From the NCBI GenBank assembly GCA_044892505.1, contig CM097882.1:270816001-270880000 (forward strand): DNA of 64,000 nt, written 5' to 3'. The translations under genes and the position numbers were made by a program. Numbering within the stretch: position 1 is the first letter of the stretch; each line of letters begins with the position of its first letter. Shown here in pieces: positions 14,984 through 50,020 of this stretch. The stretch comes from Schmidtea nova. Its lineage: Eukaryota. The notes under the pieces were generated by a model. It did not search any database and was not told where the DNA came from. It was given only the letters and a program-made list of their open reading frames with translations.

Positions 14984-15066
<83 letters not shown>
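14984..15066. repeat. (TA)n microsatellite
   Basis: Direct reading. Further (TA)n tracts at ~15244-15272, ~33521-33597 and ~10488-10507. Confidence 0.95.
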
Positions 15067-15069
<3 letters not shown>

Positions 15070-15239
15070 CATAATTATCTTTTTTCACCTTTGATCTTTT
15101 TTTATTATTATTATCAATAATTCTCATAATGACTATAGATCAAAATTTTTTTTTTATATAAACAATAACACAATATTTCGGCACAGCCTTTATCAAGTGT
15201 GTATTTTGATCTATAGTCATTATGAGAATTATTGATAAT

Positions 15240-15244
<5 letters not shown>
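15066..15244 (-). repeat. Hammerhead-bearing Penelope-like pseudo-LTR repeat, copy 1 (partial fold-back, (TA)n on both sides)
   Basis: Reverse complement of TACACACTTGATAAAGGCTGTGCCGAAATATTGTGT at 15168-15203. 38-bp inverted repeat at 15105-15142 and 15207-15244. Confidence 0.75.
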
Positions 15245-15276
<32 letters not shown>

Positions 15277-18200
15277 ATTTACAATTAAAAATATATGTTT
15301 TAAAAGCACAATTGCTGCAAAGATGTGTCTAAGTTAAAAATCGGTTATTCAAACCGTCCTCAGAAATAAAGAAACAAAAGCTGGACCTAAATGGCTCAAC
15401 AGCTCCGACTAAGAGTAAGGTAATAAAATGGTAGGTTGCCATGGATTTTGCGCGATAGTAACAACCCAGAATTGGTTGTTACTTTTCCTATGAAAGTTCC
15501 CTTCTAAAATTTAGTTGTCTGAACTGAAAGAACAAGATAGTATAAATACTTTTGCTCCGTGATCGCATGTTTGTGAATAAATAAAATGTCCTCTCAACAA
15601 CGATCAATTTTCTCAATTATTGTTTCTCCAATTAAGGTCTTAAAGTTTCTATAAAAAAATTTTGTCTCTCACAAATTTTAGCAAATAAACTATTGTCCTT
15701 CTCTAATAATTTTCACGAGTAAAATATTGTCGCTTCAAACTGATTTGCAATTAGTTTAAATAGTATTTTGAAAACACACGCAGGTCTCCGCGACCAGACA
15801 TGATTAAACTCGACATATTTTATTGTGAGTTCTTTCATGCTCTAAATGCATAACTTTTTACGATTTTGAGTTTTATTTAAAAATGATGAAAATTTTTTTT
15901 TAATCGCTAAATGAATATGATTAAAATTCACATTATAATGAAAGAAAGTATTCGTTTTAAGATACCGAAATTGAGTGATGTAAAAGATTTTAACTATTTA
16001 AAAAAGAGCAATAAATATATGGAATCTACAAAACAAGAATTCCAGCACCTATTTTTGGATACAGCATTGCATCATGCTGAAAAAAATCAAAATCTATAAG
16101 AAGTGTAATATCACCTATTCTAACTGATGAAAACTACATGATTTTTCTGAATGATTGCTGAACATTCGTTAGAGAAACCAATGTACACTACAGTTTTATT
16201 CAAAAATCTGTTAAAAAGCAATCTAAGTTTATTCTCCATGGGATTAAAAACTAAATATTAAATACTGTGACTGGTTTCAAGATTCTCTTAGATATTCAAT
16301 CAACCCATAGATATTTTTGAAATAAATATATATTATAGAATATAAAAATAAAGGCAGATTAAATGTACATATACAGGATAATAAAACAATATTTTGGACA
16401 ATACATTATATAATTTAAGCCAAACCAAACCGATTATATGACATTTGATCTTTGACTTCATGTTCCATCTTTTTAATTTTTACTTTCAAGTGATTATCGT
16501 TCAGTGATGTTGAAAATGTAACTTGAAAAGACATTTGTGATTATTAATATTTCATCTAATAATATATGTGATCGTTTATATTTCATTTACTGTGCAAATT
16601 TAATATCTTGAAGATTTAATCGTCTATAATATTGTTATTAAATTTTCGGTATTTCTTTACTTTATCGGCCGTTTTTTAAATATTGTAAATATTTTCAAAT
16701 TAATAAATAAAAATTTACTTTATGTTTAAAGTTGATTGTTCTGATTATTACGGTAATTCTGTTTTAATATTCCAGGTAAGATTTTATAAAAAGAATATAC
16801 CCCGGCCTACCAAAAGTCTCCAGTCAGGCAGTTATGTACATATTGCAGTTTATAATAAACAGAAATGGAAACAAATGTCACAAACGCACACGAATACTGA
16901 ATGTCTGTAGTGCTGAGAGAGTTAGTACTTCATTATATCACCTTTCATCTGTATGTACAAGTGTGAGCCCTGGACTCACTACTACCTAATTTGTTCGTTG
17001 TATCTGTCAGCTCACAATGCTGTAGAATTATTTTTACGACGACACAAAATCGATCTTATTAGACCACTTTTAATTGATATGACGAATGTTTTGCCTATGC
17101 CGAAAAAAATTTTATACTATGATCATGAATCATTGAACCGGTGTGATTTAAGTGATTTTAGGTGTTTTATTTTTCAGTTTTTTGATGGAGCTTAATTGCA
17201 GCTATAACCCATCAGCTAGGTATTTCTGTTTAAAGTTCAGAAGAAATCATTTATTTTTAGAGATAATACGTGGAAAATCCCCGTCGGCCGGGATTGTGAA
17301 TTCGCAAATAATGTTTTAATTCTTTGTACAGGAATAAGTATTGGTGATTTGTTATTTCTTTTTATTTTGATTTTCGTAATGTAAATTAATTAAACAATTT
17401 TATTAGGTTTATATGATAATTTTTCATATTTATTTATTTAATGATTGGGTGTGTAATTTCGATGTTTGTTTCACCATTTTTACTCATTATAAGGGCAACT
17501 ACTTGAGTTGGTGCTTTGTTTTTCAAATTGAATTTATAAAATTTCCACCAATCTCACCTTGATATTCATTTAAATCGCTTTAAATGACATTGTATAACGT
17601 ACAAAAGTCTACGAGAAATTATGATCGATTTTGGCTAGATCTCTATTTATTAAATTCACATTCGTTCGTCATAATGATAAGTAATTGCATTCTCGTTATT
17701 ACACTCCTGAAATATTTCAATATAATTTTATGCTATATACTTGAATGTTCTTAATTTAAAAGAAGTTTTAATTTTTTTGAACTTTTAAAATTTTCCATTT
17801 TTATTGATTTTTACTAAGTTTTATGCTTTTTATTTTTGTATTTTACTAATTTTATTAAACCCCAACATACTTATTTTACGCGAACCTATAAAAACAAATC
17901 AAATTTTTCAATAACAACATTGCATCGACAGGGCTAAGGTTCAACTAATAACATTAATTCAATTACTGATATGCAAAATGAATACGAATCCGGAAAAGCC
18001 TGGGGCACATGTACTTTTTTTAATTATAATTTTATATTGAGATTTTTTTTACTAACTGCCTTGCTTATTATGCATAACTATACAAATTTCAGAAAATTTC
18101 TTAGGTCGTGAATAGTATTTTTGAGGATTAAATTCTCTAAGACATTATAATATTTACACAGGCAGAAATGATTAGTTAATTATCTACAAGTATCATTTTA

Positions 18201-18499
18201 GTAATAATCGAATTTAATAATTACTGTCATATACTTATCTGTAGGCCAGTGACAAATAAATTTCTTCTAATTTCAAACATTGTTGTAGCATTTGATGCAG
18301 AATTCAATTGTATGATTTTTCCCGATTATTTCATGCAATTGTCAGCAGCTGTTATAAATCAATTCTCAAACACGAACAGTTTATTGGGCTTCGTTAGAAA
18401 TTTTTGTTAGAACTCAGAAAATTTTTAATTAATGAGATTTGCTGAGGGTTTTTTCCCTGTCAATTTTAAATAAATAAAACAATCAAATAAATAGAATCA

Positions 18500-20440
18500 A
18501 ATAACAATGACAATTTTAATTATAACAGCAACGAAAACCCGCAAACTGAAAATATAAATAATTGTCCTAACCCCAAAAATTCCCTTACAATCAGTTTAGT
18601 ACTCAACTTAAAGCAAATATCCCAAATTTTTTCACAAACGAAAATGGGACACCGAAAAAATAGCTCGAATTTGCCAAACTAACATTAAGTTTATCAGGGA
18701 TTAAATCATCAAAAACAGCATGTTCCCACATAATTGCAGCACTCCCCAGCAACATAATAAACGAGATAGCCGACCGAATAGACGATATATCGAAAGATGA
18801 TGATCCTTTTGAAAACCTATACAACACTAATAAACCGAAGTAAGGTTAACGGGCTAGAACTACTCGAATCTTGCTTAAAAGACATTGAACTAGGCAATGA
18901 TAAACCCTCAGAGTTTCTGCGAAATTTAAAAGCAAAACTCGAATATCTACAACCCAAAATAACAAGAACTGGGTCAACAGAATTCATTAAGGACCTATTC
19001 ATGCGTGCAATGCTTCCAATGCTATTCTAGCAGTCAGCAATTGTACAGACCTCAAAACATTTGCAAACATTGCAGACAAAATTAACGACGAAATATACTC
19101 GACAATATGTAGAACCTACCAAAACAAAAATTACTTCCATGAAAAAGAACAAAACAAACAAAATTCTCTCAAATTTGACGAAATAATAATTGAAAATAAA
19201 AATCTGAGAAAAGATATAACAGAACTACAAAAAAGAGATTCCATAAGAACACAGTTCTACAAAAACAGTCAAAACTACTCCAGACAAAATTCAAGATCTG
19301 GAAGCCGAAACAGTTTTGACAGAAACAAAACCTGGAATAAACCACACAAAAACCAAAATCAAAACCATTGTTACTTCCACAATAAATTTGGGAATAAAGC
19401 GTATAAATGCAACAAACCCTGCTCTTTTGATAAAGAAGAGTCGGAAAACATATAAAGTCACCAATGATAGCACCGACAATTGGTGACAGTCAAACATTCA
19501 CGGTACATAGCAACAATATTGACTTTCTGGTGGATTCAGGCTCAATAATTTCATTTATAGCAAGCCACTTATACAAAAATTTAAAAATAGAAACAACAAG
19601 TTTGTGCGCACCCAACGGCAGCCCAATCAAAACATTAACATCATCGTCAACAAAATACAATATAACTGGTAATTCACTATCGCCGAAGCCAAACAAGCCA
19701 TTTTAGGAGCAGACTTCTTCTCAAAATTTAACCTACTAGTTGACTGTAAAAATAGAAGAATTATAATAAACAACTTCAACAACTCAGCCAACAAAAGCAA
19801 ACAATCAAACATACAAATTAATTGCGATATTGGAGTAATAACAACCCAGCACGGTGAAACAAAAGCAAATGAACAAAAAATAAAAACAGAAAATCAAAAC
19901 TGACAATATATACCTAACGAAATTATAAAACTCATACAAACAGTATCGAACATAACTAAAAAAACTAGCGGCAAACGACGAAACAAAATGCATAATCGAA
20001 CACGCAATAATTAGCAACGGAAATCCAGTTCACGAAAAAGTCAAACAGCTAGGCAAAAGAAAACTTGAAATAACCAAAAAAAATATTCGACGAACTGTTA
20101 GAAAAAAATCGTTAAACATTCTAACTCAAATTGGTAATCAGCCCTCATGCTTAAAGAAGAAAAAACAAATGGTGAATGGCGTGCTTGCGAAGACTACAGA
20201 GCATTAAATAGCATTACAACTGCCGATAAATACCCAATACCAATTAAAAATGACATTATCAACAGGGTCAAAAACCAAAATTATTCAGCCAAATTGACTT
20301 AGAAAAAGCATATCATCAAATTCCAGTCAGAACAGAGGACATAAAGAAAACAGCAATCATCACATCCCTAAGCCTTTTCGAATATAACAGAATGCCTTTT
20401 GATCTAAAAAACACAGCGGCAACTTTCCTACGCTTTCATT
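18500..20440 (+). mobile_element. Decayed Ty3/gypsy gag-protease-RT
   Basis: Gag ELGNDKPSEFLR, knuckle CYFHNKFGNKAYKCNKPC (~19366), protease FLVDSGS (~19521), RT motifs DYRALN..TADKYPIP, DLEKAYHQIPV, RMPFDLKNTAATF. Confidence 0.9.
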
Positions 20441-20944
20441 TGTCACCCTCCTCCCCATATGTTTAGAAAAGTCACATAAATATCCAGTTTGTAATTAATA
20501 AGTTGTTGCCCTATTTGTAATCCCATATTACTGGGATTGTTTTGTATTAATAGTTCGGTTTAATAATTATTACAATTATAAGAAATTTAAAATATATTTA
20601 AAAATTTAAAATAAAAAATTAATTAATAACCCAGGATAATAGAAAAAACTATAGAGAAAACTAGGGAAAAGACGAACAACCGAAAAATTAGAAATTAAAA
20701 GAAATTTATGCAAAATACGGAAAATTAAAAACTAAAGAAGATAAAACTTTTCTTTTAAAAATTATATAGTTTCTTCATACGTGAGTACCTGTTTGATATT
20801 TTATCGTTATTTTTTACTAATAAAATTTGTAAATTTGTTCATTATAAAATTATTATCCGATTTGTTAAACCATTCAATACATACAGCCACACAAACACAC
20901 AAGTACATAATCAACACAACATTCACCCCAGCAATCCCGTGACA
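20441..20944. mobile_element. Probable solo LTR interrupting the gypsy RT
   Basis: Begins TGTCAC and ends GTGACA (6-bp terminal IR). The RT frame stops exactly at its left edge. Only a 3-bp ATT duplication flanks it, so no clean TSD. Confidence 0.55.
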
Positions 20945-21109
20945 ATTTTTACAGGAGACTGCTGGGCTCTACAATCTTCCTCAACAACTATCATTTAATT
21001 ATCAATAGCAAGATATAACAATATACCTTTCTACATACGAATAACATTAAGTTTGTTTTACTTGATAACTTTGGGCTGCTACAATTATGGAGAAATTTGA
21101 GAATGCGTC

Positions 21110-21735
21110 TAGAATGTGCAATATCGCAGCAGCATCAAGTTTTTGTTTATGAATGAAAAAAATAGAGAAATATGTTCAGAGTTAAAAGCTACTTATGGAG
21201 ATTAGTGGTCATCACAGGCATCAATTTATCGCTGGTACAACAATTTCCAGAATGATAGAACCTCTGTAATCGACAATGACAAGTAAAGAAAACTTTTGAA
21301 ATTTGTGGAAATTACCAAAAAGCTAAAAACAATCGCAAAAAATGAAAGAAGAATTACATCCAGAGAATTAGCAATACGACAAAATGTGATTAAAAGTACC
21401 ATTTGCACTTTACTTACTACAAATGGGTTCTCATAAGGTTTTTATCACTAGAAATACAGCATCACCCTTTTATATCTGCAAGTAAAATTTGAAGATTTTT
21501 AATCGTTTTGGTGACAGTTTCTTGACTTCGTGGGTGAAACTCCACTATCACTGTTTCAGAGTCAAAGCGAGAATCCTGAGAATGGAGAGTCTTGAGAGAG
21601 CAAATTTCTGGGATGATAATGGCATTGTTTTATCTGATTTTGCCGAAAAGTGTTTGAATTTAACAGTACCTACTACTCGAACATCAAACAATGTCAGGAA
21701 GCTCGGAAGAAAAAATCGAGTATCTGAGTGAACAT
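21110..21735 (+). mobile_element. Heavily decayed mariner related to the 13.7-kb copy
   Basis: QYRSSIKF..., IYRWYNNFQNDRTSV, NERRITSREL and FWDDNGIVLSDFAE parallel the 13.85-14.9 kb transposase. Confidence 0.8.
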
Positions 21736-22004
21736 GTTACTTTGATCTAAGTAAAAATACATTTTTGTATATTAATTGAATTTTTATTATCTTACATTTT
21801 TGTTATCCATATTTGTCAAATAAACATGCATTCATTCACAAGTTAGTACATAGCTATCACCACAATTGTCGTGAACATATATTTACATAGACTCTGTTCA
21901 TCTCGAACCTTTTGTATCTACACACTCAATAAACTATAACTATTTGAGCTATAACATTAGCAAAAGTAGAAGAGAAGGGCATTTGAAAAATCTGTAAGCT
22001 TTCA

Positions 22005-22215
22005 ATGCGAAGGCATTATTCAAAGCTCACTTAGTAATTTCCGAACCTCGACTTGATCTCCAGGTTGTTAAAGATATTGACAAGTATAAACAAGAAGATG
22101 TAACTATCTCTAGTGTTGCTCTAAAAAGTTTTTTTGAACATCTTCGGTACTTTTTATAAGAATTAGCAAACGAAGTCTCTACGAAGACTAAACGCAAGAT
22201 GGGTGCCGCCTAGAA
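22005..22215 (+). mobile_element. hATm-like transposase C-terminal fragment
   Basis: PRLDLQVVKDIDKYKQEDVTISSVALKSFFEHLRY...EVSTKTKRKM resembles the hATm-type C-terminal region. Confidence 0.5.
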
Positions 22216-23031: not shown

Positions 23032-23272
23032 CCCTTTCAATACGATTTTTTTATTTTAATAATTCATGTAGACATCTAGACTGACAAAATTTTATAGAAA
23101 AGAAAAAAACAGACAGCAAACAGCAACAAAGCAGACAGGTTTAGACTTGTTTACGAGCCTATGACCATACAGTACTAAAATTCCAGATCCCAATACATTT
23201 GTAAGCATTTAAATTATTTTAGTAATTATTAGAAATTCTTTGGGACAATATGTCCCTACAGTATTGAAAGGG
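23032..23272. mobile_element. piggyBac-type MITE (241 bp)
   Basis: Perfect 12-bp TIR CCCTTTCAATAC and GTATTGAAAGGG, flanked by TTAA at 23028-31 and 23273-76. Confidence 0.88.
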
Positions 23273-27201: not shown

Positions 27202-27400
27202 TTATTATCAATAATTCTCATAATGACTATAGATCAAATTTTTTTATAAACAATAACACAATATTTCGGCACAGCCTTTATCAAGCTGTGCCGAAATATT
27301 GTGTTATTGTTTATAAAAAAATTTGATCTATAGTCATTATGAGAATTATTGATAATAATAATAAAAAAAGGTCAAAGGTGAAAAAAGATAATTATGATAA
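27202..27400. repeat. Pseudo-LTR repeat copy 2: perfect 74-bp fold-back
   Basis: 27202-27275 is the exact reverse complement of 27285-27358, with a 9-nt loop CTTTATCAA. The right arm continues into the family tail AAAGGTGAAAAAAGATAATTATGATAA. Confidence 0.9.
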
Positions 27401-28439
27401 TAATATGTAATAATTAAAATAATAATGTTAATTAATAAAATAGTATTAATTATTAAAAATAATTTTAATTAATAATAAAATTTATAAGTAAAATTACAGT
27501 ATTCAAAATGATTAATTCAAAATAAAAATGGGGGAGGGGGAATTGGCCATGTGTTGAATTTAAATTTTTTAACCTTAAATAAACCTAGACCTTTGACTTA
27601 AAGTAAAAAATCATTATAACATGATCGATAACGTCATAAAAAATTTAACATTAAGGATCCTCGATTTTGATTAATGAGTAATTATCGAGAATTACATAAC
27701 AGTCTTGTCAAAACAGGAACACAGGCATTGATAATGGAGTATTTTTTTACTAAAAACCGCTGAAACAACAGCACTACTTGAGAAAGAAAATACAGTGGAA
27801 AATATTTTAGTAACGAAAGTGATGTTCAAGTTTTACATAAACGAATGCGCATTTCTTCAGATAGTGATAGTATTTTAAAAATATAATTTATGTTTTATTT
27901 TGCCATTTTTTATTTCATCAAAATGACTTTTTTATGTTTTGTTAAATTATGATTTTTGTTAAATTTGTATTTTTAATTGTTTTTTAGTTTTCCTGTATAA
28001 ATAATATTCTCATAAACATATCTAATATGTATTTAAATAAAAATGGTGTAAAGCATGTAAAAACCTTCAGTTTGTACACTCCAATAACATTATTTTGGTT
28101 CATTTTACAATTTTAGTTCATTTTACGTCTATCCTTCCGTCCATCACTCCATTTTAATAAATTATAACTAAAACAATTATTACAACTATCGTGCAATTAT
28201 TGTATTTTTTGTTGTAAATTATGGAAAAGGAGTGTAAAATATATGTTAGTTATTCAAAATACCTGATATTGAGGGAAAATATTTTTTATGTATCTAATAC
28301 TTATTAAATTCTAAAGAATGTGATTGATATTTAACGGGATTTTTTAATAAATAGTCTTCAGTGCGCTGCATGTTCGTAAATATACCGCGAATCTTCAATT
28401 CACGAGTTAGTCAAAAGATTATTTGCTAATCTTCTAAGG

Positions 28440-29109: not shown

Positions 29110-29696
29110 AGCTCCGATTGCTTTCCTCATCAAATTCTGTATTTTTACGAATCTTCTTTTCCTCATAGCTTTTAGCTTCCAACTGTTATCCACCGACCGC
29201 AACAACTCGAATACCAGCTACAAATCCACTGGGATCGGTTTTGAATAACAGTGGCTTATCCATCTCCTTATCATAAGAAAATGCGATCATTGAACAGCCT
29301 AGTGGCATCATTTCAGCTGATTGAGTGTACAATTGATTAATATCGGCAGAACATCGACAAATCATGTCACAGGACATTTCGTAACCAATTTTGCATTTAA
29401 ATTGTGCAGCTTCCATTTGTGCACGGCATACTTGCGATCCGCAATCAGAAATCATTCCGGTCCTATCGCAACCGATACTTTCAGTTATGTTAAATAATCT
29501 TGTAGCTGAACTCCTTTCATTCATTTTATCTGGGACTTTTCTTTGTGTAGTATCTACGCCAATCATTACCTCGAACACCAACAGAAAGTAATCCATCTAA
29601 CGCAATCGCTTTAAATGCATATTCGGCTTGAAATAATCTGCCTTCGGGTGAAAAAATAGTCATATAACGATCAAAAACTCTCGAGCCCAAAGACAT
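29110..29696 (-). pseudogene. PSMA6: Intronless 5' fragment of 20S proteasome alpha-6 (alpha1-type) subunit
   Basis: [31 protein letters not shown]...TQRKVPDK...YTQSAEMMPLGC...KTDPSG. One frameshift near 29570, a stop at ~29186, and truncation before the C-terminus. Confidence 0.92.
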
Positions 29697-29889
29697 TTAA
29701 TTTATTAAATTTTCCAATCCAATTTTATTCGAAAAACATTTTTAATTCCTCAATTTACAATGCAATCAGCTTCCAATAAAATCCAATCTAATAATTCAGA
29801 TCTAATAATGCCATTCAGCAATTTTTTTAAATTAAACTTCCGCCAATTAAAATTAAACAGCTCAGTAAAACAAACTAAAATCCAGTCCA

Positions 29890-31037
29890 ATATTTTTAAT
29901 CAATTTATATTTTCATTATCAGAATTATCTGCTGCTCCTGATAGATCAGATTTAAACACGATGCCTTTTTCAGTTCTGTATTGTATATTTTCAGATTTCG
30001 GAGAACTCAGATCAAGATTTCCAATTGGCTCAGAATTAATAGTACAATTAATTCGATTCTAGTCAAGTCAAATACGACTTATGAGTCAGTATCATCTGCT
30101 GTTGGTTCAATCTCATTATTTACACGTATATCTTCATTGGAATCAACATCTGTCAAAGGATAGTCTAATTTCTTTTCTAAATCAACTTCATCACAGGTAA
30201 TTTCGGATGTTTCGTCGACTAAATTAGAAGTATTAGGTGGAACAATTATTTCGTCGACACTGCTATCTTCAGGAGGATGAGATGTGTCTGAGTGGGACTC
30301 TGATGATACGGGTATTTTCCTTCGCAACCTCGATTTTGATGAAAGTGCTGATAAATCCATGTTTATTGTTAAATTATTTTTTTTCTAATTCTCGTATCTT
30401 CCTTCAATTCTGGTAGCCTTGTAAACAGTAAATGAACAATTCGTTCCAGTGTACATTCTGCTGTGTGCCTCAACAACTCGGATAATTGCGCTTCGAAACA
30501 TATTCTGAAGCAGCTCGATATGATCTTGCATACATCATAATCACTGTTTAAATATCCAGCCGGTACATGCATTAGTGTATCAAGAAGTCGTAATATTTTC
30601 ATTAAAATCACCTCATCTGAGCTATGATCAGTTCCAATAAACTTCGTATTAGTAACTGTATTAGCAACTGCTTCAATAGCGATTTGCAGTGCATCATTAT
30701 CACTGGTCATCGAAATATCTATATATCGAAAACTAAGAAATTTCTCCACAGCAGTCAAAGCTAATCCAGCAATCAATCCAATCATTTCATCGGAACTAAT
30801 TACATCTAGAAATGGTGAGAGAAATTCCAGCGGTTTTAGTTCTGATAGATCATTTATCTGAGATAATGTAGATTTAAGGCTCGATAAATTACTGTACAAC
30901 GGATCTGATATTTCTTCTTGATAAGAACGAATTGCGTTGCCTTTCATTCTTCTTTTCATGGCAGTCATTAATAATCTTACTTCTAATTAAACGACATATT
31001 TAGCATTTTTCTTGCTGGTCATTTAGAATAGATATTG
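29890..31037 (-). pseudogene. GBF1: Intronless 5' fragment of GBF1-type Sec7 Arf-GEF (DCB domain plus linker)
   Basis: FLSPFLDVISSD..GLALTAVEKFLS, GTDHSSDEVILMKIL, CFRICFEAQLSELLRHTAE..LFTRLP. The start ATG ACC AGC AAG lies ~16 nt after the SL. A YRTEKGIVF motif near 29960 parallels the YVNPRGVRF motif of metazoan GBF1. Confidence 0.92.
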
Positions 31038-31078
31038 CATATAAGATTTATATAGATTTCGATAAGACCGTCTAACGG
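31038..31078 (-). other. Planarian spliced-leader exon joined to the GBF1 5' end
   Basis: Minus strand reads CCGTTAGACGGTCTTATCGAAATCTATATAAATCTTATATG (41 nt), matching the triclad SL1 as I recall it. It is followed by CAATATC rather than a GT donor. Confidence 0.9.
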
Positions 31079-31229
31079 TCTTAATACTATATAAACTAAT
31101 ACTATATAAAGGGTTCGAAATTTAGTATACACCATATAAAATTATTTTTAACCTTTTCGAGTTGTCAACTAGTCAAAACCAAGATCAGGATACAAAATAA
31201 AACGATCTACACTGTATTTGGTTGACTTC

Positions 31230-31673
31230 AGCCACGTGCTTTTGATTTTCTGAATATCTTTCATAGCATTCAGTGTCAGCTGTCATCTCTGGAATGTCAC
31301 CTCTCAGTGGCAATGAACCGTTTCCTTCCGATTTTATGAAATCTTTCAAGGCCGCAACAAGAATCCAGAAAGATTTTGACTCGCGGTGAATGTCAATACG
31401 ACAAGGATCCTCTAAAAGAGTCCTGACGTTGATTAGAATCTCAGAAAGAAAAACAGTCATTGGAATTGACTTCCTTGCTTCTCCGAAACTCTTTAAATAT
31501 AGGGATAGGGGTAAGTCCTCTTTTGAGGCGCATAATCTTAGATAATCCTCGCGTCTTTTACTGATCATTTTCCTCAGATATGGTCTGTCTTTATACGAAT
31601 TTGGCCATTTTTCGAACTGAGATTGGAATGAAGTGATAGATTTCATCAAATTGTCTTTTTGATTTACGAGCAT
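31230..31673 (-). pseudogene. NAE1: Intronless internal fragment of NEDD8-activating enzyme regulatory subunit (APPBP1)
   Basis: SFWILVAALKDFIKSEGNGSLPLRGDIPEMTADT parallels APPBP1 [33 protein letters not shown]. Both termini are missing. Confidence 0.88.
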
Positions 31674-31679
31674 CGATTT

Positions 31680-32398
31680 CTACTATCAATTTTATCAATA
31701 TCATTGCCTTCAGATCTATCTTCTATATCATCAAGCATAAGTTTGGGGTTGAACAAAATGCTCGTTCGAAACTTATAACAAAGTTTACAAATTGGAGAAT
31801 TTTGAAGTTTTTCTGTAACAGGTGTTCGACCAACATTCAATTTGCGCCAATAATCACTGTCAGATATCGGTGAATTAAATTGTAGCTTTTCTACAATTAC
31901 TGAAGATCGCACTTTATCAGAAATGATTGAATCTCTCGAAGGCAACAGTGAGGTCTTCGGAACTTCTCGGACAAACGAAATGTCTCAAACAAAAGGTTTT
32001 CTGGCAAAATTCTCTTCTGAATTAAATTTTTGACTAGGGGTCCGCCAATTGAGGAATTCTTGGTTAATAGTAAAAAAGTTTTTCTCGTAAACTTCGAAAA
32101 ATAATTTTGGTAGAGTTCTGCTGAGACAGAATTTTTACCAGATGGTTGTAGGAAATTCTGCTGATTATGATTTTGTGGGCGGTATTTATATCGGGAATTG
32201 CCTGCTGTTTTCGTTGATGCATTTAAACAAATTGTTCTAGAAGGAATTTTCGATTTTTCCAAAATTAAATTTAATAATTTTAAACAAAATTAATTTATTA
32301 TTTTTGTAAATTTTTTTATAAAACTTTAAATAATTTATTTTTAATCTAAAATTTTACTTTTAAATTAAAGTTTTTTCTAATTTAGTTTAATTTACTAA
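31680..32398 (-). repeat. AT-rich leader plus broken ORF of an unidentified repeat family (homolog at 55405-55950)
   Basis: AAATTAAACTAAATTAGAAAAAACTTTAATT...TTCTAGAACAATTTGTTTAAAT(G/A)CATCAA is shared with the plus strand at ~55405-55600. Confidence 0.75.
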
Positions 32399-33112: not shown

Positions 33113-33430
33113 ATAATATTATTTAAAATGCTAGCTGCTATGTCGAATTTACGTAATTATGAAATAAGACCATATCTATGAAATAAATATATAAATTATT
33201 AAATTGTGCTAATATTAAATCTATTTATTTAATTAAATATTATTAAATTTTAAAATTAAATCTATTCATTATCAACAGAATTTTATTTGATGTCTGCAAG
33301 GAGTTTCAAAACTCCTTTTAAATTAAAAATAATTTAATTAATTAATTTGACTATTAGCATTTTATATATTTTATACTAATATAATATAATATAATAAGAT
33401 ATTAATATAATAAGATATAATATAATAAGA

Positions 33431-33517
33431 TACACACTTGATAAAGGCTGTGCCGAAATATTGTGTTATTGTTTATAAAAAAAAAATTTTTTGATCTAGT
33501 CATTATGAGAATTATTG

Positions 33518-33597
<80 letters not shown>
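33431..33597 (+). ncRNA. Pseudo-LTR repeat copy 3 with minimal hammerhead-like motif (U3-A8 variant), ending in (TA)n
   Basis: ACAC-TTGATAA-A-GGC(TGT)GCC-GAAA-TATT-GTGT at 33434-33466. Stem I ACAC/GTGT, stem II GGC/GCC, palindromic AATATT stem III. Confidence 0.65.
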
Positions 33598-36661: not shown

Positions 36662-36696
36662 TTTCAACATTATTTGACAAGTCAATATGTTTATTA

Positions 36697-37450: not shown

Positions 37451-38247
37451 AAAACACCATTCCGTCCCGCACATTAGATGGAATAGACCAAAGAGTTGTG
37501 ATGTTCCCAATAAAGAGAGACCGACGATGGGACGTGAAGAGATATGGAGATGGTCTTCTATTGAATAAGTAGAACCCGCAGCAGAGGCAAGCAGGGAGTA
37601 GTCACCTCAGAGGTCGCTTACCTGCAGACTTGATCTACGTCGTGGTGTACAGCACCAACATGAGAATAAAAGGGTTTCATGGGTACACACTCGTAAGGGA
37701 CGTATTTATGAAAACGTCTACGATAAATTCCCCTGAGACAGAAATGAATTGTAAGAAAACATCAAGTGGCACACCAACAAAACAGGGAAAAAATTTGAAT
37801 TATGTTTTATAAATTTTTATCAGTTCATTTTATCGATGGAAGTGGGACCCCTTGGCCCACTATTACTTGGCTATGTAATTGCATGGCACCCTGCTTAGTA
37901 TAAATTGTCGACATAAATTTATTTACGAATTAAGTTAGTAATATTTTATTATTTCTTCTACGCACTTTAATAATTGAAACCACTTTAAATATTATAGCTA
38001 AATTGACAAATGTTAATGTTATTATTCTATTATATAATTATACAACACCTAACAAATCAATTTATTTTTTATGTCGTGGATCATCAATTCTGACCTACAG
38101 AACAATGACCACGATATTTAAACTTCTAAATCATTGCGGGTCAGTGAACAAAAAAATATTTTTACGATAATATTGATCTTGAATTGTATGATCATAGTTG
38201 ACCCGCCAATAGATTTCATCTTTTGGATTTTACTTTTATGCTGGATT

Positions 38248-38405
38248 ATAAACAATAACACAATATTTCGGCACAGCCTTTATCAAGTGTGTATTTAGGC
38301 TGTATTTAGGCTGTGCCGAAATATTGTGTTATTGTTTATAAAAAAATTTTGATCTATAGTCATTATGAGAATTATTGATAATAATAATAAAAAAAGATCA
38401 AAGGT
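38248..38405. repeat. Pseudo-LTR repeat copy 4, fold-back, running into a gap
   Basis: ATAAACAATAACACAATATTTCGGCACAGCCT, then a spacer, then AGGCTGTGCCGAAATATTGTGTTATTGTTTAT and the family tail. Confidence 0.85.
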
Positions 38406-39292: not shown

Positions 39293-39338
39293 TGTTAGAA
39301 TGAAATGAGATAGTTTTTTATTGTCGTAAAATGTTAGG

Positions 39339-39689
39339 TTGCACTGTTATATTGGTCTATATAAAAACTTCATAAAAAACTCAGACCTTCCAAAATTTTA
39401 CTGTTTAATTAAAACCCACAAAGGTTCTGCGATTAAAATTAGACCAATTGTATCCAATACAAAAGTTCCAACAACCAAAGTGAGTTGGCTTCTCTCCAAA
39501 ATTCTAAAACCACTGATGGTTCAAGTACCACACCATCTTCAAAGCAGTGACTGTCTTATGTCAAAATTAAATAAAACAGATAAAAACACCAATGCAAAAT
39601 TCAATTATCCCTTTAGCCACAATGTGGTATCCCTATATACCTTTATCCACCCTAAAGATGCTATAGATTGTTTAGAAAGAAAATTTTAA
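39339..39689 (+). mobile_element. Penelope-like RT N-terminal fragment
   Basis: PKFYCLIKTHK..IRPIVSN..PTTKVSWLL..IL.PL...S.NVVSLYT.I...AI, typical of PLE RT motifs 0 to A. Confidence 0.88.
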
Positions 39690-39699
39690 AAAATGTAAA

Positions 39700-41975: not shown

Positions 41976-41977
41976 AT

Positions 41978-43040
41978 AACTATTTCCCAATGGGGTCGCG
42001 TGACAGTTTGCCAGGTGTCTCCTGAGACCTTCTGAAAAAATAATTTTTTACGCGAGTCAGTGGTTAATACTTCTACTGACCTACTCTGACTACATTGGCA
42101 CTACAGTCACAACACTGAAGCGACGTACAATACTATGATTCATTCGACAGATGTCAGGAGCCTATATAATTTAATAATTTTAGCTATTTAAATTCTTGCA
42201 ACTTCAACTCTTTTTACGAAATTACCTACGTAATTAGTGATGTAAAATGAAATCATATTCTGTTTGCGGTAAAACAGTGTTTTCAGCTATTATTAAAATT
42301 AGTCATGCATGCGCTTCATATTCTCTAATTATAAAAGTCAACTAAACTAAAAGTTTTATTATAAAATTTTATATTGATGAAATTTGCATGCGCTTGATAA
42401 TGAATCAGCGAGATACAAGTGTTAGGAAAAGAAAATATAGTGATGAATTTTTAAAGTATGGCTTTACTTTCATAGTTGCAGCAGGAGTTGAAAAGCCACA
42501 ATGCGTTATTTGCAACGAAATTATGTCAGCCGAATCCATGAATCCCAACAAACTGAAACGCCATTTTGATACTAAACATCTTAACTATGCAGGTGTTTTA
42601 ATCGAGCCAAGACCATTTTTAATGCATTTTTATTTTCATCAGTAAACAATTCGTCTGCCATAGTGTCAAAGATATCACTGTTTAACCTGAAATCATCAAA
42701 AGAAGCATTGCATTGTTGACGTACGTCAGATGTTTGAATTCTCGATATTAAAATTGACCTTGAATCACAATTAACTTTCTTAAATTGAAAGGAAGGATTG
42801 ATATCTCTTAAAGATTTGATTCTGGATTGATTCTGGTGGCCAGTACCAACAGCAAAATGTAGCAGCCATTGAAGCTTCATATTTGGTGGCTCTCAGAATC
42901 GCCAAAGCCAAGAAACCTCACACCATTGCCAGCAGCCAAAGACATTGTTCGAGTTATGCTTGGAGTTGAATATGTTAACAAATTGAATGCAATATCCTTA
43001 TCTAATAACACCGTTAGTAGAAGAATAGTTGACATGTCTA
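41978..43040 (+). mobile_element. hAT Buster/Charlie 5' end with transposase N-terminus
   Basis: Left end TTCCCAATGGGGTCGCG. RKRKYSDEFLKYGF..KPQCVICNEIMSAESMNPNKLKRHFDTKH, then EASYLVALRIAKAKKPHTI and SLSNNTVSRRI. A possible right subterminus lies near 45120-45160. Confidence 0.9.
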
Positions 43041-46000
43041 TTACTATGACTATTATGATTATTATTTTTAAGGCACGTATGTGCCATTGATTATTGTTGT
43101 TTTTAAGGTACTTATGTGCCATATGTTAGTTTTGAATTTTTTCAATTTTCATTGTAAACGACCAACTCCGACGCCAACTAGAACCTCAACAAAACCCATG
43201 GTGCACAAACAATCCGACCAATCATGCTGAAAGAAAATGAGTGTAAGAAGTATTTTTTTGTTTTTCTTTAAGACATGTTTTATTTATTTCATTATTCAGC
43301 AGGATCTTGTTGAGTTAGGAATTAGGATAATTTTATTCTTTGTTTTTAACAGGAGAATCAATGATTTCGCATAAATTGTTGTTGTACTGAAACAAGTATT
43401 TTTCATTCAATAAATTATTTGTTACGGCCTTTACTACATTTTTATAAGGTTTGTCAATATATGAGGAGGAAAGAAATGGCATTAATAATAATCTTTATAT
43501 TCTCCAGGACGGTTACAGCTTGTTACACCATATCCTATATCAGTGGTCTTTGCATTGACTAGTTGTTTATATCCATTGCGACTTTTACTATATGAAGATT
43601 TTTGATTGAAAAAGTCTTGGATAAATTAGCTCCATTTTTTTGGGCTGACTAAAATTTGGGAGACCAGCACACTTAGCAATATTGCCTTTTGAGTTTTAGA
43701 TCTATATGGGCTATTTGCAAAAATCAGAGAACAGACACTCATAAGTATTAAGTTTGTTAATTTATTTATTCATGTCAAAATTTTATTTTAAATTTATTTA
43801 TTTATTTATTGTGAGCAAATTTTATTTGTGAGAAGTTTATGAGATAATAAATAGCATAAACTTTGTCGGATTTCACAAACAGTAAGGTTTTCTTTTTAAT
43901 GCTTAATTTGTAAATATCTATCTAATTGAAAAAAATATTATTTTATTAAATCAAATTGGTTAATCTATAAAATTTTTATTTAACAAGAGAAAACAAAACA
44001 ATTTCTTTAGCTTATTTGATAGGATAATTCCAATTTTTATTATTAGGTCCCAAAAACAAAAATAATACAATTCAAGTAATGTCAACATAAAATATAAATT
44101 CAATTAATGTCAAATAAAATAAAATGAAATAAAATATAAATTCAATTAATGTCAAATAAAATATTAATGTTTGAATCACAGATAATGCAATTCAATCTGA
44201 ATATTTTGGTATTTGGCAAATTGGACGATCTGGTTAAATTGGCATATATTCAAATGGGCATTTTGATAATTATTCCTTGACATATATTTATTCTATATTT
44301 ATTCTGTCCTATTTTATAATATTTATTTAGACAGGATATATCTATTTTTGACCATCCAACATTATTATTATTATCATTGTTGTTGTTATTATTATTATTA
44401 CTATTACTATTAAATTACTATTAAAATTATTATTTTTTTCATTTTTATTATTATAAAAGTTTTGTTAAATATTTTATATGCAATAATAAATCAAAAAACA
44501 AATTTTAAAAATGTGATAACAAAATAGTGCAATACTAATAAGTCGAATAATCAAGGAATGATATTCACTGTTTATATGTCTATGTAAAAACACAGACAAA
44601 TACAAACAAATAAGTGTATTCGTGATGATAATATTTTTGAATGGTAGAAAAGATTTATTTGAAATGTTAACTTACTAAAATTATTTACATTTTATAAACA
44701 ATTGAAACTAGCCTTTAAAATGACATACATATGTACCAAGCATTCTTGATTGTTTAAAAAAATTGGCTCATGACAATTATTCCATAAAGTACTCAAACTG
44801 AGAAAGGTAAAATTGAAAGATAAAATTAATTATATAAAAAATTCACTTTTGAAAACAGAGCTGGAACAACTTTCCGTAGTATTGCTAAATGTGTCGTGTT
44901 CTTTTCTAAAACAAATGTTTTCCTCATTATCAGTATCTAGATAGAAATTTAAATTTTCTAAGAATGTCAACCTAATCAGTCGACATTCCAGTTTGTTAGA
45001 ATATTTTTGTTTGTTGAGAACTTGTGTAATGTAACATACGTCTGAGATTTGTGAAGCTATATTAAAATCGAAATAAAAGGTATTCATTGATTTGGTTTTT
45101 GATTATCATGTGTAATTTTGTTTTCGCGTAACCCTTCATTTCCCATAAACGTATTTGAATTACGTCCTAGTGGTCTCGCGACCCATGGGCGGAGTTGGCC
45201 TCTCGCCCTGACTCTCTCGGGGATGCACCAAATATGAGAGGGAAATTGCACATATGGCATTTATTTTTCATTTTTCATATCGTGTGCATCTAATAATAAT
45301 TTAAGATTTTTTTTGAAATCGAAATAATTTCATAATCGGATTCCATACAAGGATTTGTGGAGATGAGAGCACATATGTCATTTGATTCGAAAGACGATCA
45401 GTAATATTTTTACACTCGATAATGAGGTTTTGATGAGGTGACATCGAGGGCATAACGACAGAGTGATTCCACGTATATCAACTACAGGTGGAATCTTGAT
45501 ACCAGCAGTGTTTTTGACACAAAGGTGAAGGTATTTGGGAAGATTATTATATAGAGTTAGGACATCTAATAACCATAACGAGACCCAAGACGAAGCGATT
45601 AACGCTCATGAAACATAACGTAATTGTAAAAGTAGTTGGATTAAGTACTCAAAATAGAACAGGTGGACAGCCACGTCGTTTCTCGCAAGCGTTTTTGATT
45701 TGCAATGAATTACACTGTGTATCATGAATTTTTTATGCAACTCTTTGAATGTGAGTAGTGGATTTTCTAATCACAAGACATACAAGTCATGGCTCCAAAT
45801 GCAGGTGATAAATTATGAAAAGGAATATGGCCACATTAAATGATCAACTAATTTCCCGACAGTAGACACCGATTCAATGAATTTTCAGTGCATTCTGTTT
45901 TGTTTATGCTAACAGCGCAGGGAATTAAGTAGCAAAAAACTCGCCATTAAAAATCCATTACAGGAACAAATATCTAAGTCGAATCGTGTTATTACCACAG

Positions 46001-46405
46001 TGGGCGAGAGGAAATTTTATCGCACGTTCAGCACAGTCAACATTTTTCTCGTCCACGACGAACCATCTGTGTGAGACGAAGCAAATGAATCCCTCATAAT
46101 GGAATTAATTTTATACCCACGGATAACCAAAATGAAAATGCACCGAGATAACGATAATGACCAAATACGATAAATAACCGTGGCGTTTCCATATGGCCAT
46201 TTTTGTATCTAATTTTAGCAAGAGAATGCATTGAAAAATTTTGTTATTATCTTATGAATTTCAGAAAATACAGCATGAACATAACGCAACAAGATTCAAC
46301 CAGGACTCGATATTTCCGAAACGGAAGGGTAGATAAACAAACCGGCTGTCAGGCTCATCAAGGAGTTCCAACGAACCATCATGGATGAACTTTATCGCCA
46401 CATGA

Positions 46406-47180
46406 GAAGGTGGCGATAGGAGTTTCAACGATCAGCCCCATTCAGAATCTGGGAGAAAAGGGACAAAACGATCTGCTGGGAAGGCGGGCAAAATTGGCCT
46501 CTGTGTGAGCCCACTTCACCAGAATCAGTATGGACGCAGTAGTTCATTGTATCGCTACAAGTCGGTCAATTGGAAAGTTGTCAACAAATTTCTTTTAGAC
46601 GCCTTTTGGTCGATATTTTTAGACAGTTCAGAAATTACTCTAAACTCGATTAGGTCAGCGAGAAATACGCTGGATAAACTATTTGACAAAGACGAGTCAC
46701 TATTTTATCAATTGTCCGATGCCAATTCCGAATCAAATGAAATCTTCGAGAAGAATGCTAAGAATTTGGAATTGCGACAGAATTGTCTTAGAAAGTTTAT
46801 CAGTGATTATTACATTAAAATTCCAAAAAGATTTCAAAACGCTTAAAATATGTGTAAACGATTCATTGATAACGTCAGATCATATCTTCATATGATGCTG
46901 GATATTATGACTTTAATCACTATATGTGAATGTGAGATCCGGGATGTTGAGCTGGGGATTCCTTATTGGTTGGTTGACGTTGATGATAACACTCGAATGA
47001 CAATTGATGAACTGGTTGAAGTTTGGGATGATTGGGATGAATGAATTTTAGACAGAATTGCTGGATTGAAAGGTAAAAACATTAGCAGTGTTTGTGAAAA
47101 AAATTGAGAGATAGTAAAGGAACTTTTGACGGAGATTCGTGAAATTTCAACTGAGTCATGTTGTGATAACAATTTATTTT
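46406..47180 (+). other. Decayed ~258-codon single-frame ORF, unknown
   Basis: ORFs 46505-46846 and 46850-47044 share a frame. It is open from 46406 and continues to ~47180, with three internal stops and no frameshift. Confidence 0.55.
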
Positions 47181-49955
47181 AAAATAAATGTTATTTGTTT
47201 ACATTTGTTGTTTTTATTAATTGGTACACAATTTCGTTTTCTACCCTACCCAACGCGAGGCACAATTATGGATATCTCACGGGCACCGTCGCGGAGTTTA
47301 CGATTTTATGTTGGTGAAGTTACCCTAATACAAGACCAAACAAAACTCATTCATCAACCACACCAGCAATTGGCAAAATTATATAAGTAATTATTTCATA
47401 GAATAAAATTATTGATTTTAGAGAAGTATCGCTGACTCAACGGAATTTTCGATAGTAAATTATACTCTACTTATTATTTTTACAAACAATTCTATTACGT
47501 CATTTTTTTCATTTACTAGCCGGTTGATTTTTGACTGCGAAATGAATATCAACTTATATTCAGTTATTATTGGGTAATTCTGTGGATTTTATTAGCGTTA
47601 TTTAGAGTAAAACCTTTGTTTTCGCAAAAGTTTTCTAGACTAGATTTCTTGTTAACTTCAAACCGGCATTCGATGCAATATTCTCCATTACATAGCTACA
47701 CTATTTTATGGGTCACAATCAATCCTTAAATTGGGTGGAGACACACTTAAGAAAATATTAACAGGCGAAATGGTAAGCAAATTAAGCTTTGTGTTGTTTT
47801 GGAATTTATATCGTTGATTCTTGAATCGAACATTTATCGTTGTATCTCTGTTTTCTTTCTAAATGAGGTTTTGGTAAACGCAGAAGGAAGACAAATTTAA
47901 TTTGCTGATCCCATGGTCAAATGCATTCAACTTATCAGGATTCGATTTCTCAGAAAAATTTTTGGAATTTATGTTATCCACATGGAATTGATATTGTGAT
48001 AAAAAATTGATTCAGTAGGAGGTAAAGTTTGCTTACTCGTTTAGGTAATTTTCTGTCTCCTAATAATCGTAATTATAATGTTCTTAACAATAAATTTTTG
48101 TCGTTCTTGTAATTGTTTCCTTTTTCTATTTTTTTAAATAACATAAATTAAGTTAAGTTGTGTTCATTATTAGATGGGTTCGTGTGTAATAACATATACT
48201 AGACATTTTATAGGGTTTTATAACACAAATTACACCTTCAGATTAGAGTCAAATTATTATAATCTATCGGTACGGATAGTTTCCCGATGGTGAAATTGTA
48301 GTAGGTTTAGAGAATACCTGGACCAAATGTTAAAAAATTAGTGAGAAATATCGCCTCTCTAACTCCATTTTTTGGAGTCTGTTCGATTTTGTGATTTTGG
48401 ATTCTCATATTCCTTTTTACAATCACATTTGAGTGGGGTCGTATTCCGGGATTTCGTCGACATAATAATGATAGAACAATGATTTATTATTAATGGAAAT
48501 AAATTAAAGGATTCGGCTCTTGTTCGATGTCACACAATTTTAAGTCAACAAACGAATGGAGTACGGCCTGATTTTTTACAACATATTTTTTAAACAATTA
48601 TAATCATTTAGACACACAACGATATATTGATTACCACAAAGTGAGCACATGGTTTCGATGCTTTAATTCGCGCATAATGTTGACTAATAAGCAAACATGT
48701 GGTGGATTCTCGACATTATGCATCCTGGTTGGTACGATAATTCCGCGAAAACCCATTTGTAGGACGATTTTGTTTCGCCCTACCCTGATAAGTAGGTCTC
48801 AAATTATATTTAAGAAAATATTAACTGCTCGGAAGAGACAGGTCCTGTCCTTTCGGACCAGCCCGACTGCAGATGGCACAGACTATTTTCCAACTGTGTT
48901 TTAATATCAGCAGCCCACTAGTCATGATCAGGTACAACACACGAGACAACACACAGGATTAAATTGGGGGATTCGGTTGAATTTGGAGTGTACGGTGAGT
49001 AATCATTCAGCAATATATTGGGAGCATATTAGTGGAGTTTGTTGAAATCTTCGGAGTCCGTGGGTATATCCAGTGAATCGGTATATCAGGCAATCGGTAT
49101 GTAGTTCGTAATTTCAGTATTCAGAATCAGCATAATGGATTAGCATCAGATAACAACATCAGGTAACAAGGCAATCAGGCATCCAGGAAATCGGTTCAGT
49201 CCATCGGTTCATGCAAAGATTCGGAGCTGCATGAACCTTTGGGAGCAGTAGGGTATTTCATTTTGGTAATATATCTATTAAGAATTTCATCTAAAGTCGC
49301 TGGGTTAGGTTGTTANNNNNNNNNNNNNNNNNNNNNNNNNNNNNNNNNNNNNNNNNNNNNNNNNNNNNNNNNNNNNNNNNNNNNNNNNNNNNNNNNNNNN
49401 NNNNNNNNNNNNNNNNNNNNNNNNNNNNNNNNNNNNNNNNNNNNNNNNNNNNNGTCCGATCAGGAAAGGTTTACATGTTAAAATACGTGATGATTTATTG
49501 TTTATTTATTGTATTTTTGATTTATATTTTAGGTTTCCGTTTCACTGGCTAGAGGTACATTCAATGAAACAATTACAAGTACTACTATTTTCGTTTTCAT
49601 TTTCTTATTTCATGTTGATTTTATTGCAGGTTCTTATTCTTTCGGATTCCTGCAATTTTGGATATTATGTATAAAAGGTTATCAATATTTTCTGATTTCT
49701 TATTCATTTTAGATTTTTGTCTTTATTCTATTGAATTATTATATCATTGATAAGTTTATTTATATTTTTAGTCAAATTTTTCTCCTTTTTTTCTTTATTT
49801 GGTCAACCCAACATAAATATTTATTAATAATATATAATAAAAATAAACCTGTTAATTAGAATTGTTTTAAATAATTTTTCAGTATGTTTATTGATAGTTT
49901 TAATAGTAATGAATATACTGTTAAGTGGGTGATAAGAATTTTTTATCTATAATCA

Positions 49956-50020
49956 TCATTATGAGAATTATTGATAATAATAATAAAAAAAGATCAAAGG
50001 TGAAAAAAGATAATTATAAT
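49956..50020 (+). repeat. Pseudo-LTR repeat copy 5 (3' tail only)
   Basis: TCATTATGAGAATTATTGATAATAATAATAAAAAAAGATCAAAGGTGAAAAAAGATAATTAT. Confidence 0.85.

Follow-up and report, generated by a model that had tools for sequence, protein, structure and literature searches.

Repeats with a predicted minimal hammerhead in a Schmidtea nova contig are very probably 5'-truncated pseudo-LTR pieces of a young Penelope-like element

Analysis of a 64,000-nucleotide window of Schmidtea nova DNA (the whole stretch under study) and of the genome from which it derives indicated, with high confidence, that the five repeat copies which it contains are 5'-truncated pseudo-LTR pieces of a young endonuclease-bearing Penelope-like element (PLE) present at full length elsewhere, likely written by the element's own reverse transcriptase (RT), and that the motif carried by these copies is its predicted minimal hammerhead ribozyme. 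An earlier note on the window had proposed a non-autonomous RNA, either PLE-derived or retrozyme-like, and had looked to a PLE ORF and an autonomous partner for support: the link to a PLE ORF was found at the locus L032, the match of the window arms to the pseudo-LTR at that locus bore out the PLE origin, and the autonomous partner proved to be a full-length coding element in the same genome.

The element has a period of 2,767 bases and a single 865-aa ORF with an RT plus a GIY-YIG endonuclease at its C terminus. At L032, Pfam reported RVT_1 (E 1.4e-7) and no GIY-YIG domain in this ORF, PDB yielded one weak RT match (E 0.026), and alignment with 18 relatives delineated a C-terminal GIY-YIG-type block with a CxxC and two histidines (residues 774-818), the CCHH motif being present and preceded by a CxC-type cysteine linker (residues 759-771) between the RT and the endonuclease. 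The ORF was open in 7 of 10 full periods (5 loci), all of which were 99.5-100% identical. Pseudo-LTRs arise from tandem or partial-tandem arrangement, with arrays at L078-L080 and partial tandems at L031-L034, and the sole tandem period found was 2,764-2,769 bases, ORF included. Contigs from three of four runs, which belong to one study and are possibly not independent of this assembly, spanned each of the element's 30 bins, and among their 115 joints the 15 listed were opposite-strand joints near -77 to -63 (coordinates counted from the A of the ORF's ATG as +1), which is consistent with the findings below.

The window copies are stubs of 65-140 bases, the arms of which aligned at 91-100% to L032 within -76 to +67 and matched no other portion of the 2,767-base unit (Table 1). 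The repeat was present at all five places previously reported (~15.1, 27.2, 33.4, 38.3 and 50.0 kb); the count of five had to be amended to eight arms, since the 15.1, 27.2 and 38.3 kb copies each consist of two arms placed head to head. Likewise, the reported (TA)n association applied to the 15.1 and 33.4 kb copies and not elsewhere, the 38.3 kb copy running into N, while the "tail" of the earlier note proved to be coding sequence, corresponding to codons 1-20 of the element's ORF. In the genome sample, the 3' flanks consisted of (AAT/ATT)n in 54 of 90 arms, (TA)n in 16 and other AT-rich DNA in the remaining 20. In all likelihood the copies in the window are inactive, since an RNA reading across both arms of a head-to-head pair would adopt a long hairpin in which the motif is opened up or buried.

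Table 1. Arms, hammerhead motifs and adjoining sequence of the repeat copies in the window
Feature	Position	Strand	Remark
(TA)n run at 3' end of long arm	14988..15065		
Pseudo-LTR stub, long arm, -76 to ~+62, with 40-base tail	15064..15206	-	96.6% to L032
Complete U3-A8 minimal hammerhead motif	15168..15200	-	
Inverted short arm, -19 to ~+22, without tail or hammerhead, then (TA)n 15245-15272	15203..15246	+	
Stub arm, -67 to +20, hammerhead core whole (27264-27284), helix I 5' strand lost	27202..27284	-	
Inverted arm, -57 to ~+62, with tail, starting inside helix II	27285..27402	+	
Short AT-rich tandem filler, 5' junction of single arm	33380..33429	+	By eye
Single stub arm, -74 to +19, then (TA)n 33522-33597	33430..33523	+	
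Complete U3-A8 minimal hammerhead: helix I 4 bp, helix II 3 bp, palindromic helix III	33434..33466	+	Predicted cut after 33462
Stub arm, -76 to -26, with complete hammerhead motif (38258-38290)	38246..38296	-	
11-base duplication at head-to-head junction	38297..38307	+	
Inverted arm, -59 to +41, running into N	38308..38405	+	3' end hidden
Shortest stub, ~-5 to +61, without hammerhead	49956..50021	+	

The three motifs reported as complete were all confirmed, as were the partial motif at 27.3 kb and the absence of a hammerhead from the 50.0 kb copy, and the predicted cut agreed with standard hammerhead numbering. A descriptor scan supported assignment as a U3-A8 minimal type I hammerhead, the motif exhibiting a 3-8 core pair, G10.1-C11.1, an extra base after A9 and a palindromic helix III. 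It ends 37 bases upstream of the ATG, and the predicted cut lies between -42 and -41. The 21-base core occurred 4 times in the window as against 0 in 100 shuffles, and the descriptor gave 1 match in 20 shuffles of the window. The fold of the motif was not more stable than those of shuffles (z -0.66), folding two motifs on two strands returned a strand-swapped, uninformative form without an intermolecular helix III, and a search with Rfam returned no hammerhead family, the best of 14 sub-threshold matches being microRNA-like hairpins formed by the inverted arms. Covariation, the absence of which among genomic copies the earlier note had listed with its refuting observations, was lacking within the family (U3-A8 in 98 and C3-G8 in none among the first 100 matches listed), as expected of near-identical young copies, and was evident between families: related PLEs carry either U3-A8 (L081, L086, L088) or C3-G8 (L082, L083, L095, L099, L104, L110), and the helices and the helix III palindrome change jointly with the core pair. 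As the descriptor itself demands pairing, the weight of that comparison lies in the position and strand of the motifs and in the separately found L081; the motif pairs were taken from descriptor output, a MAFFT alignment of seven motifs having displaced two rows by one base. The U3-A8 core is already known, having been published for flatworm PLEs (Cervera 2014, PMC4209133).

The description of the repeat as young and abundant was upheld. In genome counts, obtained as pattern matches to fixed intervals of the element, the 21-base core (-66 to -46) occurred 43,926 times. Corresponding values were 41,450 for -41 to -24, 37,095 for -52 to -24, 22,254 for -76 to -46, 11,487 for -85 to -65 and 9,728 for -110 to -90, with 1,018 for read-through past +60. 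Arms were sampled from the initial 3 Mb of a single contig by exact matching of the core, and a few of those sampled are segmental duplicates. Two fixed 3' ends, +20 and +60, lay inside the ORF, and the 5' ends clustered at -66 to -79, just upstream of the hammerhead rather than at its cut: in this sample, which under-counts arms ending 3' of -66, 60 of 94 arms started at -80 to -66, none at -99 to -81, 27 beyond -100 and a single one at -44 to -39. A stop at -80 to -60 was recorded for only 1 of 31 informative ORF-spanning arms reaching -60, as against 63 of 86 arms starting at +20 or +60 (p 2e-12).

The head-to-head pairs proved equally regular. An arm ending at +20 was joined to one ending at +60 in 28 of 29 short pairs (binomial p 1e-7) and in all five fully classed long pairs, and the pairs comprised 29 stub-stub and 8 long-long combinations with no mixed type. 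Junction signatures were distinct in 24 of the 29 head-to-head pairs. An inverted 5'-truncated copy with a tail of 30-40 bases at one end was thus observed here, and PLEs are described as having an inverted copy, a 30-40-base one-end tail and an ORF start within the pseudo-LTR (PMC8557442, PMC3846280). Fold-back self-priming would likewise yield coupled arms.

By analogy with what was found in vitro for the anole element (PMC11167929), AT-rich DNA would be cut by the endonuclease on both strands, and each of the two resulting ends would prime reverse transcription on the same RNA region, at sites lying 40 bases from each other. The two cDNAs would halt just upstream of the hammerhead, and their new ends would be connected in head-to-head orientation, with small overlaps or duplications between them. 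A simple scheme in which the RNA starts at -76 fails, given how rarely ORF-spanning arms stop there; since such arms pass -76, the scheme needs in addition either another pool of RNA or a block. The reading favoured here, which we judge about evenly balanced between right and wrong, has reverse transcription run off a pool of linear RNAs whose 5' end lies near -76, long copies being derived from templates without an end at that point (tandem read-through or circular RNA). A real possibility, if short of probable, is that no RNA end is involved and the initiating protein-RNA complex is itself blocked at a set position, the obstacle being protein bound at the hammerhead or just upstream of it, and one that is escaped about once in four passes. 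Such a block would suit the observation that arms starting 40 bases apart share one stop, on the first pass only, as well as the coincidence of the stop zone with the 5' edge that the predicted fold gives to an extended helix I, and the anole hammerhead cleaves only when protein is present (PMC11167929); with a hairpin alone, however, stalling would be expected on the 3' side (~-30), and few arms end there. An origin of the boundary by splicing or leader trans-splicing that uses the AG at -78/-77 was rejected, inspection by eye of the 83 short arms having shown no common upstream exon or leader in their 5' flanks, as was later collapse of long palindromes as the main cause, which would not yield a single sharp boundary.

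A further possibility, likewise short of probable, is a scheme in which most stubs were copied in trans from short RNAs of ORF-less ends or other stubs driven by an internal promoter near -76, in the manner of a SINE-like non-autonomous pseudo-LTR. ORF-less ends outnumber ORF starts by ~40:1 (43,926 versus 1,018), arms that span the ORF continue beyond -76, so that the stub template may be another RNA, and the Penelope of Drosophila virilis has an internal promoter in its pseudo-LTR (PMC2377424). However, no stub-specific variant exceeded 3 of 59 parsed stub arms when set against 69 long arms (a weak test if many stubs each yield few copies), the stubs track the subfamilies of the coding element, the older of which also has a coding copy (L050), and the junctions vary between copies. 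This scheme comes closest to the idea of the earlier note. The note's suggestion of a separate retrozyme-like element was not sustained, the stubs matching the autonomous pseudo-LTR, having no variant of their own in the 59 parsed arms, forming no short tandem arrays and differing in most junctions. An animal non-LTR retrozyme, with tandem 150-450-base units, a canonical hammerhead and a circular RNA, would account for abundant hammerhead-bearing window copies without an ORF, but no short same-strand tandem units were seen in the window copies or sampled loci, and the motif is minimal rather than of the canonical type (PMC7229834), rendering that identity highly improbable. Equally improbable is production of the stubs by hammerhead cleavage of the template: stubs do start close to the motif, but counts fell by only 10.5% from the -41 to -24 interval to the -52 to -24 interval, point changes in the added bases included, and a start at -44 to -39 in just 1 of 94 arms contradicts a boundary at the cut.

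A broader proposal, which we regard as improbable at present, is that the Penelope cycle stands recorded genome-wide: a protein dimer would prime both cut ends at +20 and +60 on one RNA, linear RNAs from ~-76 would give palindromic stubs in tens of thousands, and hammerhead-cut, re-ligated circular RNA, having no end, would give the long and more-than-unit copies. If true, this would be the first support from genomic data for a circular template, an idea put forward in 2014, and would assign the minimal hammerhead a role.

The finding adds one family, since earlier work had already described the motif and its U3-A8 variant as well as the tail and inverted arms; less ordinary are the strict +20/+60 pairing, the start of the stubs before the hammerhead and the passage of ORF-spanning copies beyond that point. 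With ~44,000 near-identical copies plus intact ORFs, the element offers a test system in which the mechanism of PLE insertion, only partly known, can be read from junction statistics, and the pairing together with the first-pass-only stop leads to sharp predictions on 5' ends and in vitro behaviour. Annotation would mistake such short palindromes, present in tens of thousands, for MITEs or microRNA hairpins.

PNL2_SM, which we take to be a Repbase family of Schmidtea mediterranea, shares the short CxC linker ahead of the GIY-YIG block. By eye, 71 of 94 printed endonuclease and linker residues are identical (~76%; Fig. S2, Craig et al. 2021, PMC8557442), a likeness that concerns this one row and leaves about a quarter of its residues different; the literature search found no description of a hammerhead or stubs for PNL2_SM. 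Its row is printed directly under the Nematis rows (PMC8557442). The present element, like the Hydra clade (Craig et al. 2021, PMC8557442), is shorter than 3 kb, with a DKT motif, a CxC-type linker and some (TA)n insertion, but that clade is defined by CCHH absent and RWK present, the reverse of the situation here. Penelope/Poseidon members have no cysteine linker, unlike this element. Nematis combines a short cysteine linker with CCHH; a linker is present here too, of CxC type rather than CX2-5CxxC. Beyond the cited papers, no earlier description of this PLE family or of such stubs was found in a search that left most subscription journals and Repbase reports outside its range.

Poseidon PAc of Anolis carolinensis (Frangieh et al. 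2024, PMC11167929), a Penelope/Poseidon member as the present element is not, shares two fixed 3' ends in the ORF that define the tail, AT-rich targets with ATT and a hammerhead adjoining the ORF start; it starts near ORF +111-118 rather than at +20 and +60, and its C3-G8 core overlaps the start codon instead of lying upstream. Pen2/Pen3 of Adineta vaga (Arkhipova et al. 2013, PMC3846280) share head-to-head inverted pseudo-LTRs, a one-arm tail, first ORF codons within the pseudo-LTR and solo pseudo-LTRs, but have few copies, partly ascribed to deletion, as against tens of thousands of stubs with one common 5' boundary. The Cercyon PLEs of Schistosoma mansoni (PMC4209133) share U3-A8, the extra base between 9 and 10.1, G10.1-C11.1, a 4-bp helix I and a pseudo-LTR location for the motif, mostly single with some opposite-strand pairs; helix II, however, is 3 bp here and 7-8 bp in Cercyon, and ~44,000 near-identical cores contrast with ~1,300 heterogeneous matches.

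The repeat is a real feature, its copies being stubs (short 5′-truncated pseudo-LTR pieces) of an EN+ Penelope-like element (PLE) near PNL2_SM, and its hammerhead variant has already been published; it is in the junction statistics, not in the motif, that the interest lies. Copies were present at all five window places claimed in an earlier note, and a 21-base core occurred four times in the window as against 0 in 100 shuffles. Alignment resolved eight arms (each a single-strand-direction copy) at these five places, so three window copies are head-to-head pairs. The proposed association with (TA)n held only in part, such a tract adjoining just two of the five copies. A mariner-like piece stops ~100 bases short of the (TA)n at the 15.1 kb copy. 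No same-strand neighbouring motif pairs were found within the window. RNA across the three pairs was predicted to form long hairpins, with energies from -60 to -112 kcal/mol, in which helix I of the motif is unformed; as modelled, the window copies are most likely inert insertion scars.

Window features and the basis of each call (P0001, protein of the 865-aa ORF of the full-length PLE at locus L032)
Feature	Position (strand)	Basis
Arm pair	15064-15206 (-) and 15203-15246 (+)	alignment
Arm pair	27202-27284 (-) and 27285-27402 (+)	alignment
Single arm	33430-33523 (+)	alignment
Arm pair, second arm running into N	38246-38296 (-) and 38308-38405 (+)	alignment
Single arm	about 49956-50021 (+)	alignment
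Second, unrelated minimal hammerhead motif: C3-G8 core, 6-bp helix II, longer helix III palindrome	55301-55338 (+)	descriptor match near 55.3 kb
Inverted recurrence of the DNA behind that motif	32127-32394	
Decayed GIY-YIG fragment with in-frame stop	51977-52243 (+)	36% identity to P0001
Probably another decayed PLE	39405-39647 (+)	weak match to P0001 RT region, E 5e-6
Presumed hAT, mariner, piggyBac and Gypsy-type pol remnants	2096-3931, 13766-14886, 53651-54277, 58441-61559	look of the frames
Three consecutive short frames, presumably resembling proteasome alpha subunit, Arf exchange factor and NEDD8-activating subunit pieces	29186-31679 (-)	

The core was counted 43,926 times in the 1.25 Gb host assembly (reversed control, 0), bearing out the proposed abundance, and several listed core sites recurred on the same strand at a spacing of 2,767 bases with a single ORF in between, which supplied the autonomous partner that had been envisaged. 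At L032 this RT ORF comprises 865 codons, its ATG lies inside the repeat (the A being +1, L032:2069, from which all relative positions are counted), and the tail of a stub corresponds to its first 20 codons, in agreement with the suggested PLE-derived origin; nothing of the ORF past its first codons was found in the window. Pfam detected RVT_1 (E 1.4e-7) and no other domain on the L032 ORF, while a protein search with residues 300-865 returned 149 relatives, the best at 51% identity among the 120 listed, several of which carry precomputed PF01541. All ten full periods (five loci) were 99.46-100% identical to L032, seven of them with an open ORF, and the family, judged by this identity, is young, as had been supposed. 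At L078, L079 and L080, 3-5 full units stand head to tail, several of them still with an intact ORF; these arrays are candidate source loci. Older subfamilies (L050:137-620, L006, L013) keep the hammerhead core with different upstream and downstream sequence.

The motif, with its core from -66 and predicted cut between -42 and -41 (window 33462/33463), consists of a 4-bp helix I, a U3-A8 core, one extra A and a 3-bp helix II with G10.1-C11.1, helix III being replaced by a 4-base palindrome. It fitted a structural descriptor of the minimal hammerhead, which gave one match in total across 20 window shuffles and matched the complete motifs claimed at 15.2, 33.4 and 38.3 kb. The predicted fold holds helices I and II, with stability not greater than that of shuffles (z -0.66). 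No covariation was seen inside the L032 family, the 3-8 pair among the first 100 listed of 33,397 genomic copies spanning -70..-38 being U3-A8 in 98, A3-A8 in 2 and C3-G8 in 0; between families it was found. Among 31 metagenome loci whose ORF is related, 9 gave a descriptor match, 8 of them on the ORF strand, and many of those without a match lack a 3′ end. L086 and L088 carry U3-A8; L082, L083, L095, L099, L104 and L110 carry C3-G8, with correspondingly altered helices and palindrome. Since the descriptor itself requires pairing, independent support for covariation comes from position, strand and L081, the closest relative (54% identity), which gave no strict match; a relaxed pattern located its motif past the stop codon, with U3-A8, a compensated helix I pair and a different palindrome, followed 3′ by an ATG and then an inverted arm. 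The motif is a correctly called, predicted minimal ribozyme. According to Cervera and De la Pena 2014 (PMC4209133), this type is known from pseudo-LTRs, with about 1,300 U3-A8 matches in Schistosoma mansoni, monomers being uncleaved and dimers cleaved at low level.

Comparison by eye with Fig. S2 of Craig et al. 2021 (PMC8557442) matched P0001 to 71 of 94 printed linker and endonuclease residues of PNL2_SM, whose row is printed beneath those of Nematis; together with the name of that family, which denotes Schmidtea mediterranea, the match would suggest a planarian as host. The ORF carries DKT at residue 299 and linker-to-CCHH at 759-818. With the Hydra clade the element shares DKT, a CxC linker and small size; unlike that clade, it retains CCHH and is without RWK, and so falls outside its definition, while the cysteine linker excludes the Penelope/Poseidon clade. 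The same mixture of Hydra-like (DKT, CxC) and non-Hydra (CCHH) traits is common to the closest metagenome relatives, which on these sequence traits may form with it a distinct subclade near Nematis. The window GIY-YIG fragment resembles, by eye, the Perere_Smed row of that figure, from another PLE clade.

The retrozyme-like reading also offered by the earlier note was not supported. Among 69 long and 59 stub young-type arms parsed (9 long and 31 stub arms, mostly older types or mutated, were unparsed), major alleles were common to both classes and no stub-only variant rose above 3 of the 59 stubs; the older subfamily at L050 likewise has a coding copy (88% identity to P0001), and the short tandem units that animal retrozymes require (PMC7229834) were not seen. 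Possibly RNAs from ORF-less ends are mobilised in trans, in favour of which stands the internal promoter of D. virilis Penelope (PMC2377424).

Exact genomic counts were 1,018 past +60 into the ORF, 41,450 for -41..-24, 37,095 for -52..-24, 43,926 for -66..-46 (older subfamilies counted in), 22,254 for -76..-46, 11,487 for -85..-65 and 9,728 for -110..-90: a big drop between -66 and -85, and no step at the hammerhead cut site. For 111 exact-core arms from the first 3 Mb of one contig, the match ended at -66..-79 in 83 (including three older types, L006, L013 and L050, with other upstream sequence, and several segmental duplicates), at -88 in one and beyond -100 in 27. With the young subfamily's ATG as anchor, 94 arms were obtained, with 5′ starts at -80..-66 (60), -99..-81 (0), beyond -100 (27) or nearer (7), only one lying near the predicted cut; 3′ ends fell at +60 (47) or +20 (43) or read through (4), and the 90 ended arms were flanked by (AAT/ATT)n (54), (TA)n (16) or other AT-rich sequence (20). 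(AAT)n arrays between 0.7 and 2.9 kb long abut copy 3′ ends at L035, L034:8650-9500 and L031:1-1700, their length suggesting target-repeat expansion.

Were element RNA simply to begin near -76, ORF-crossing copies should end there as well. The arms speak against this simplest reading: only one of 43 read-through arms (40 loci) ended at -80..-60, 30 running past -80, 11 ending earlier and one being uninformative, as against 63 arms from +20/+60 that stop there and 23 that continue past (p 2e-12). The stop before the hammerhead is a feature of the first pass only. Two explanations would fit: a block to the enzyme near -76 imposed by the initiating complex, or two RNA pools, one of linear RNA from near -76 and the other of circular RNA or tandem read-through. 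No account of L032-family stubs or of such a first-pass stop was found in the literature searched, and the supplementary figures of PMC4209133 may list a planarian motif of the same type.

The two arms proved to be coupled, a +20 arm being joined to a +60 arm in 28 of 29 short head-to-head pairs (p 1e-7), and 37 pairs comprised 29 stub-stub, 8 long-long and 0 mixed combinations, with about 12 mixed expected. Small loci might conceal mixed pairs; hence 21 long arms with no partner listed were re-examined in 20 loci, whereupon 19 were without an inverted partner, one had a long partner, and the last (L120) was joined to an arm from -61 reading on into the ORF. Either arm of a pair may be the longer. 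Of the 29 pairs, 24 have a junction signature of their own, which shows that the palindrome does not get copied whole. Self-priming, by which Arkhipova et al. 2013 (PMC3846280) interpreted such palindromes, also fits as their source. By analogy, the genomic arm pattern fits the scheme for the anole element in Frangieh et al. 2024 (PMC11167929), where both DNA strands are cut and extended, two reverse transcription start sites within the ORF define the tail, ATT is the favoured cut, the protein is a predicted dimer, and the hammerhead needs protein for its cleavage but is itself dispensable for in vitro insertion.
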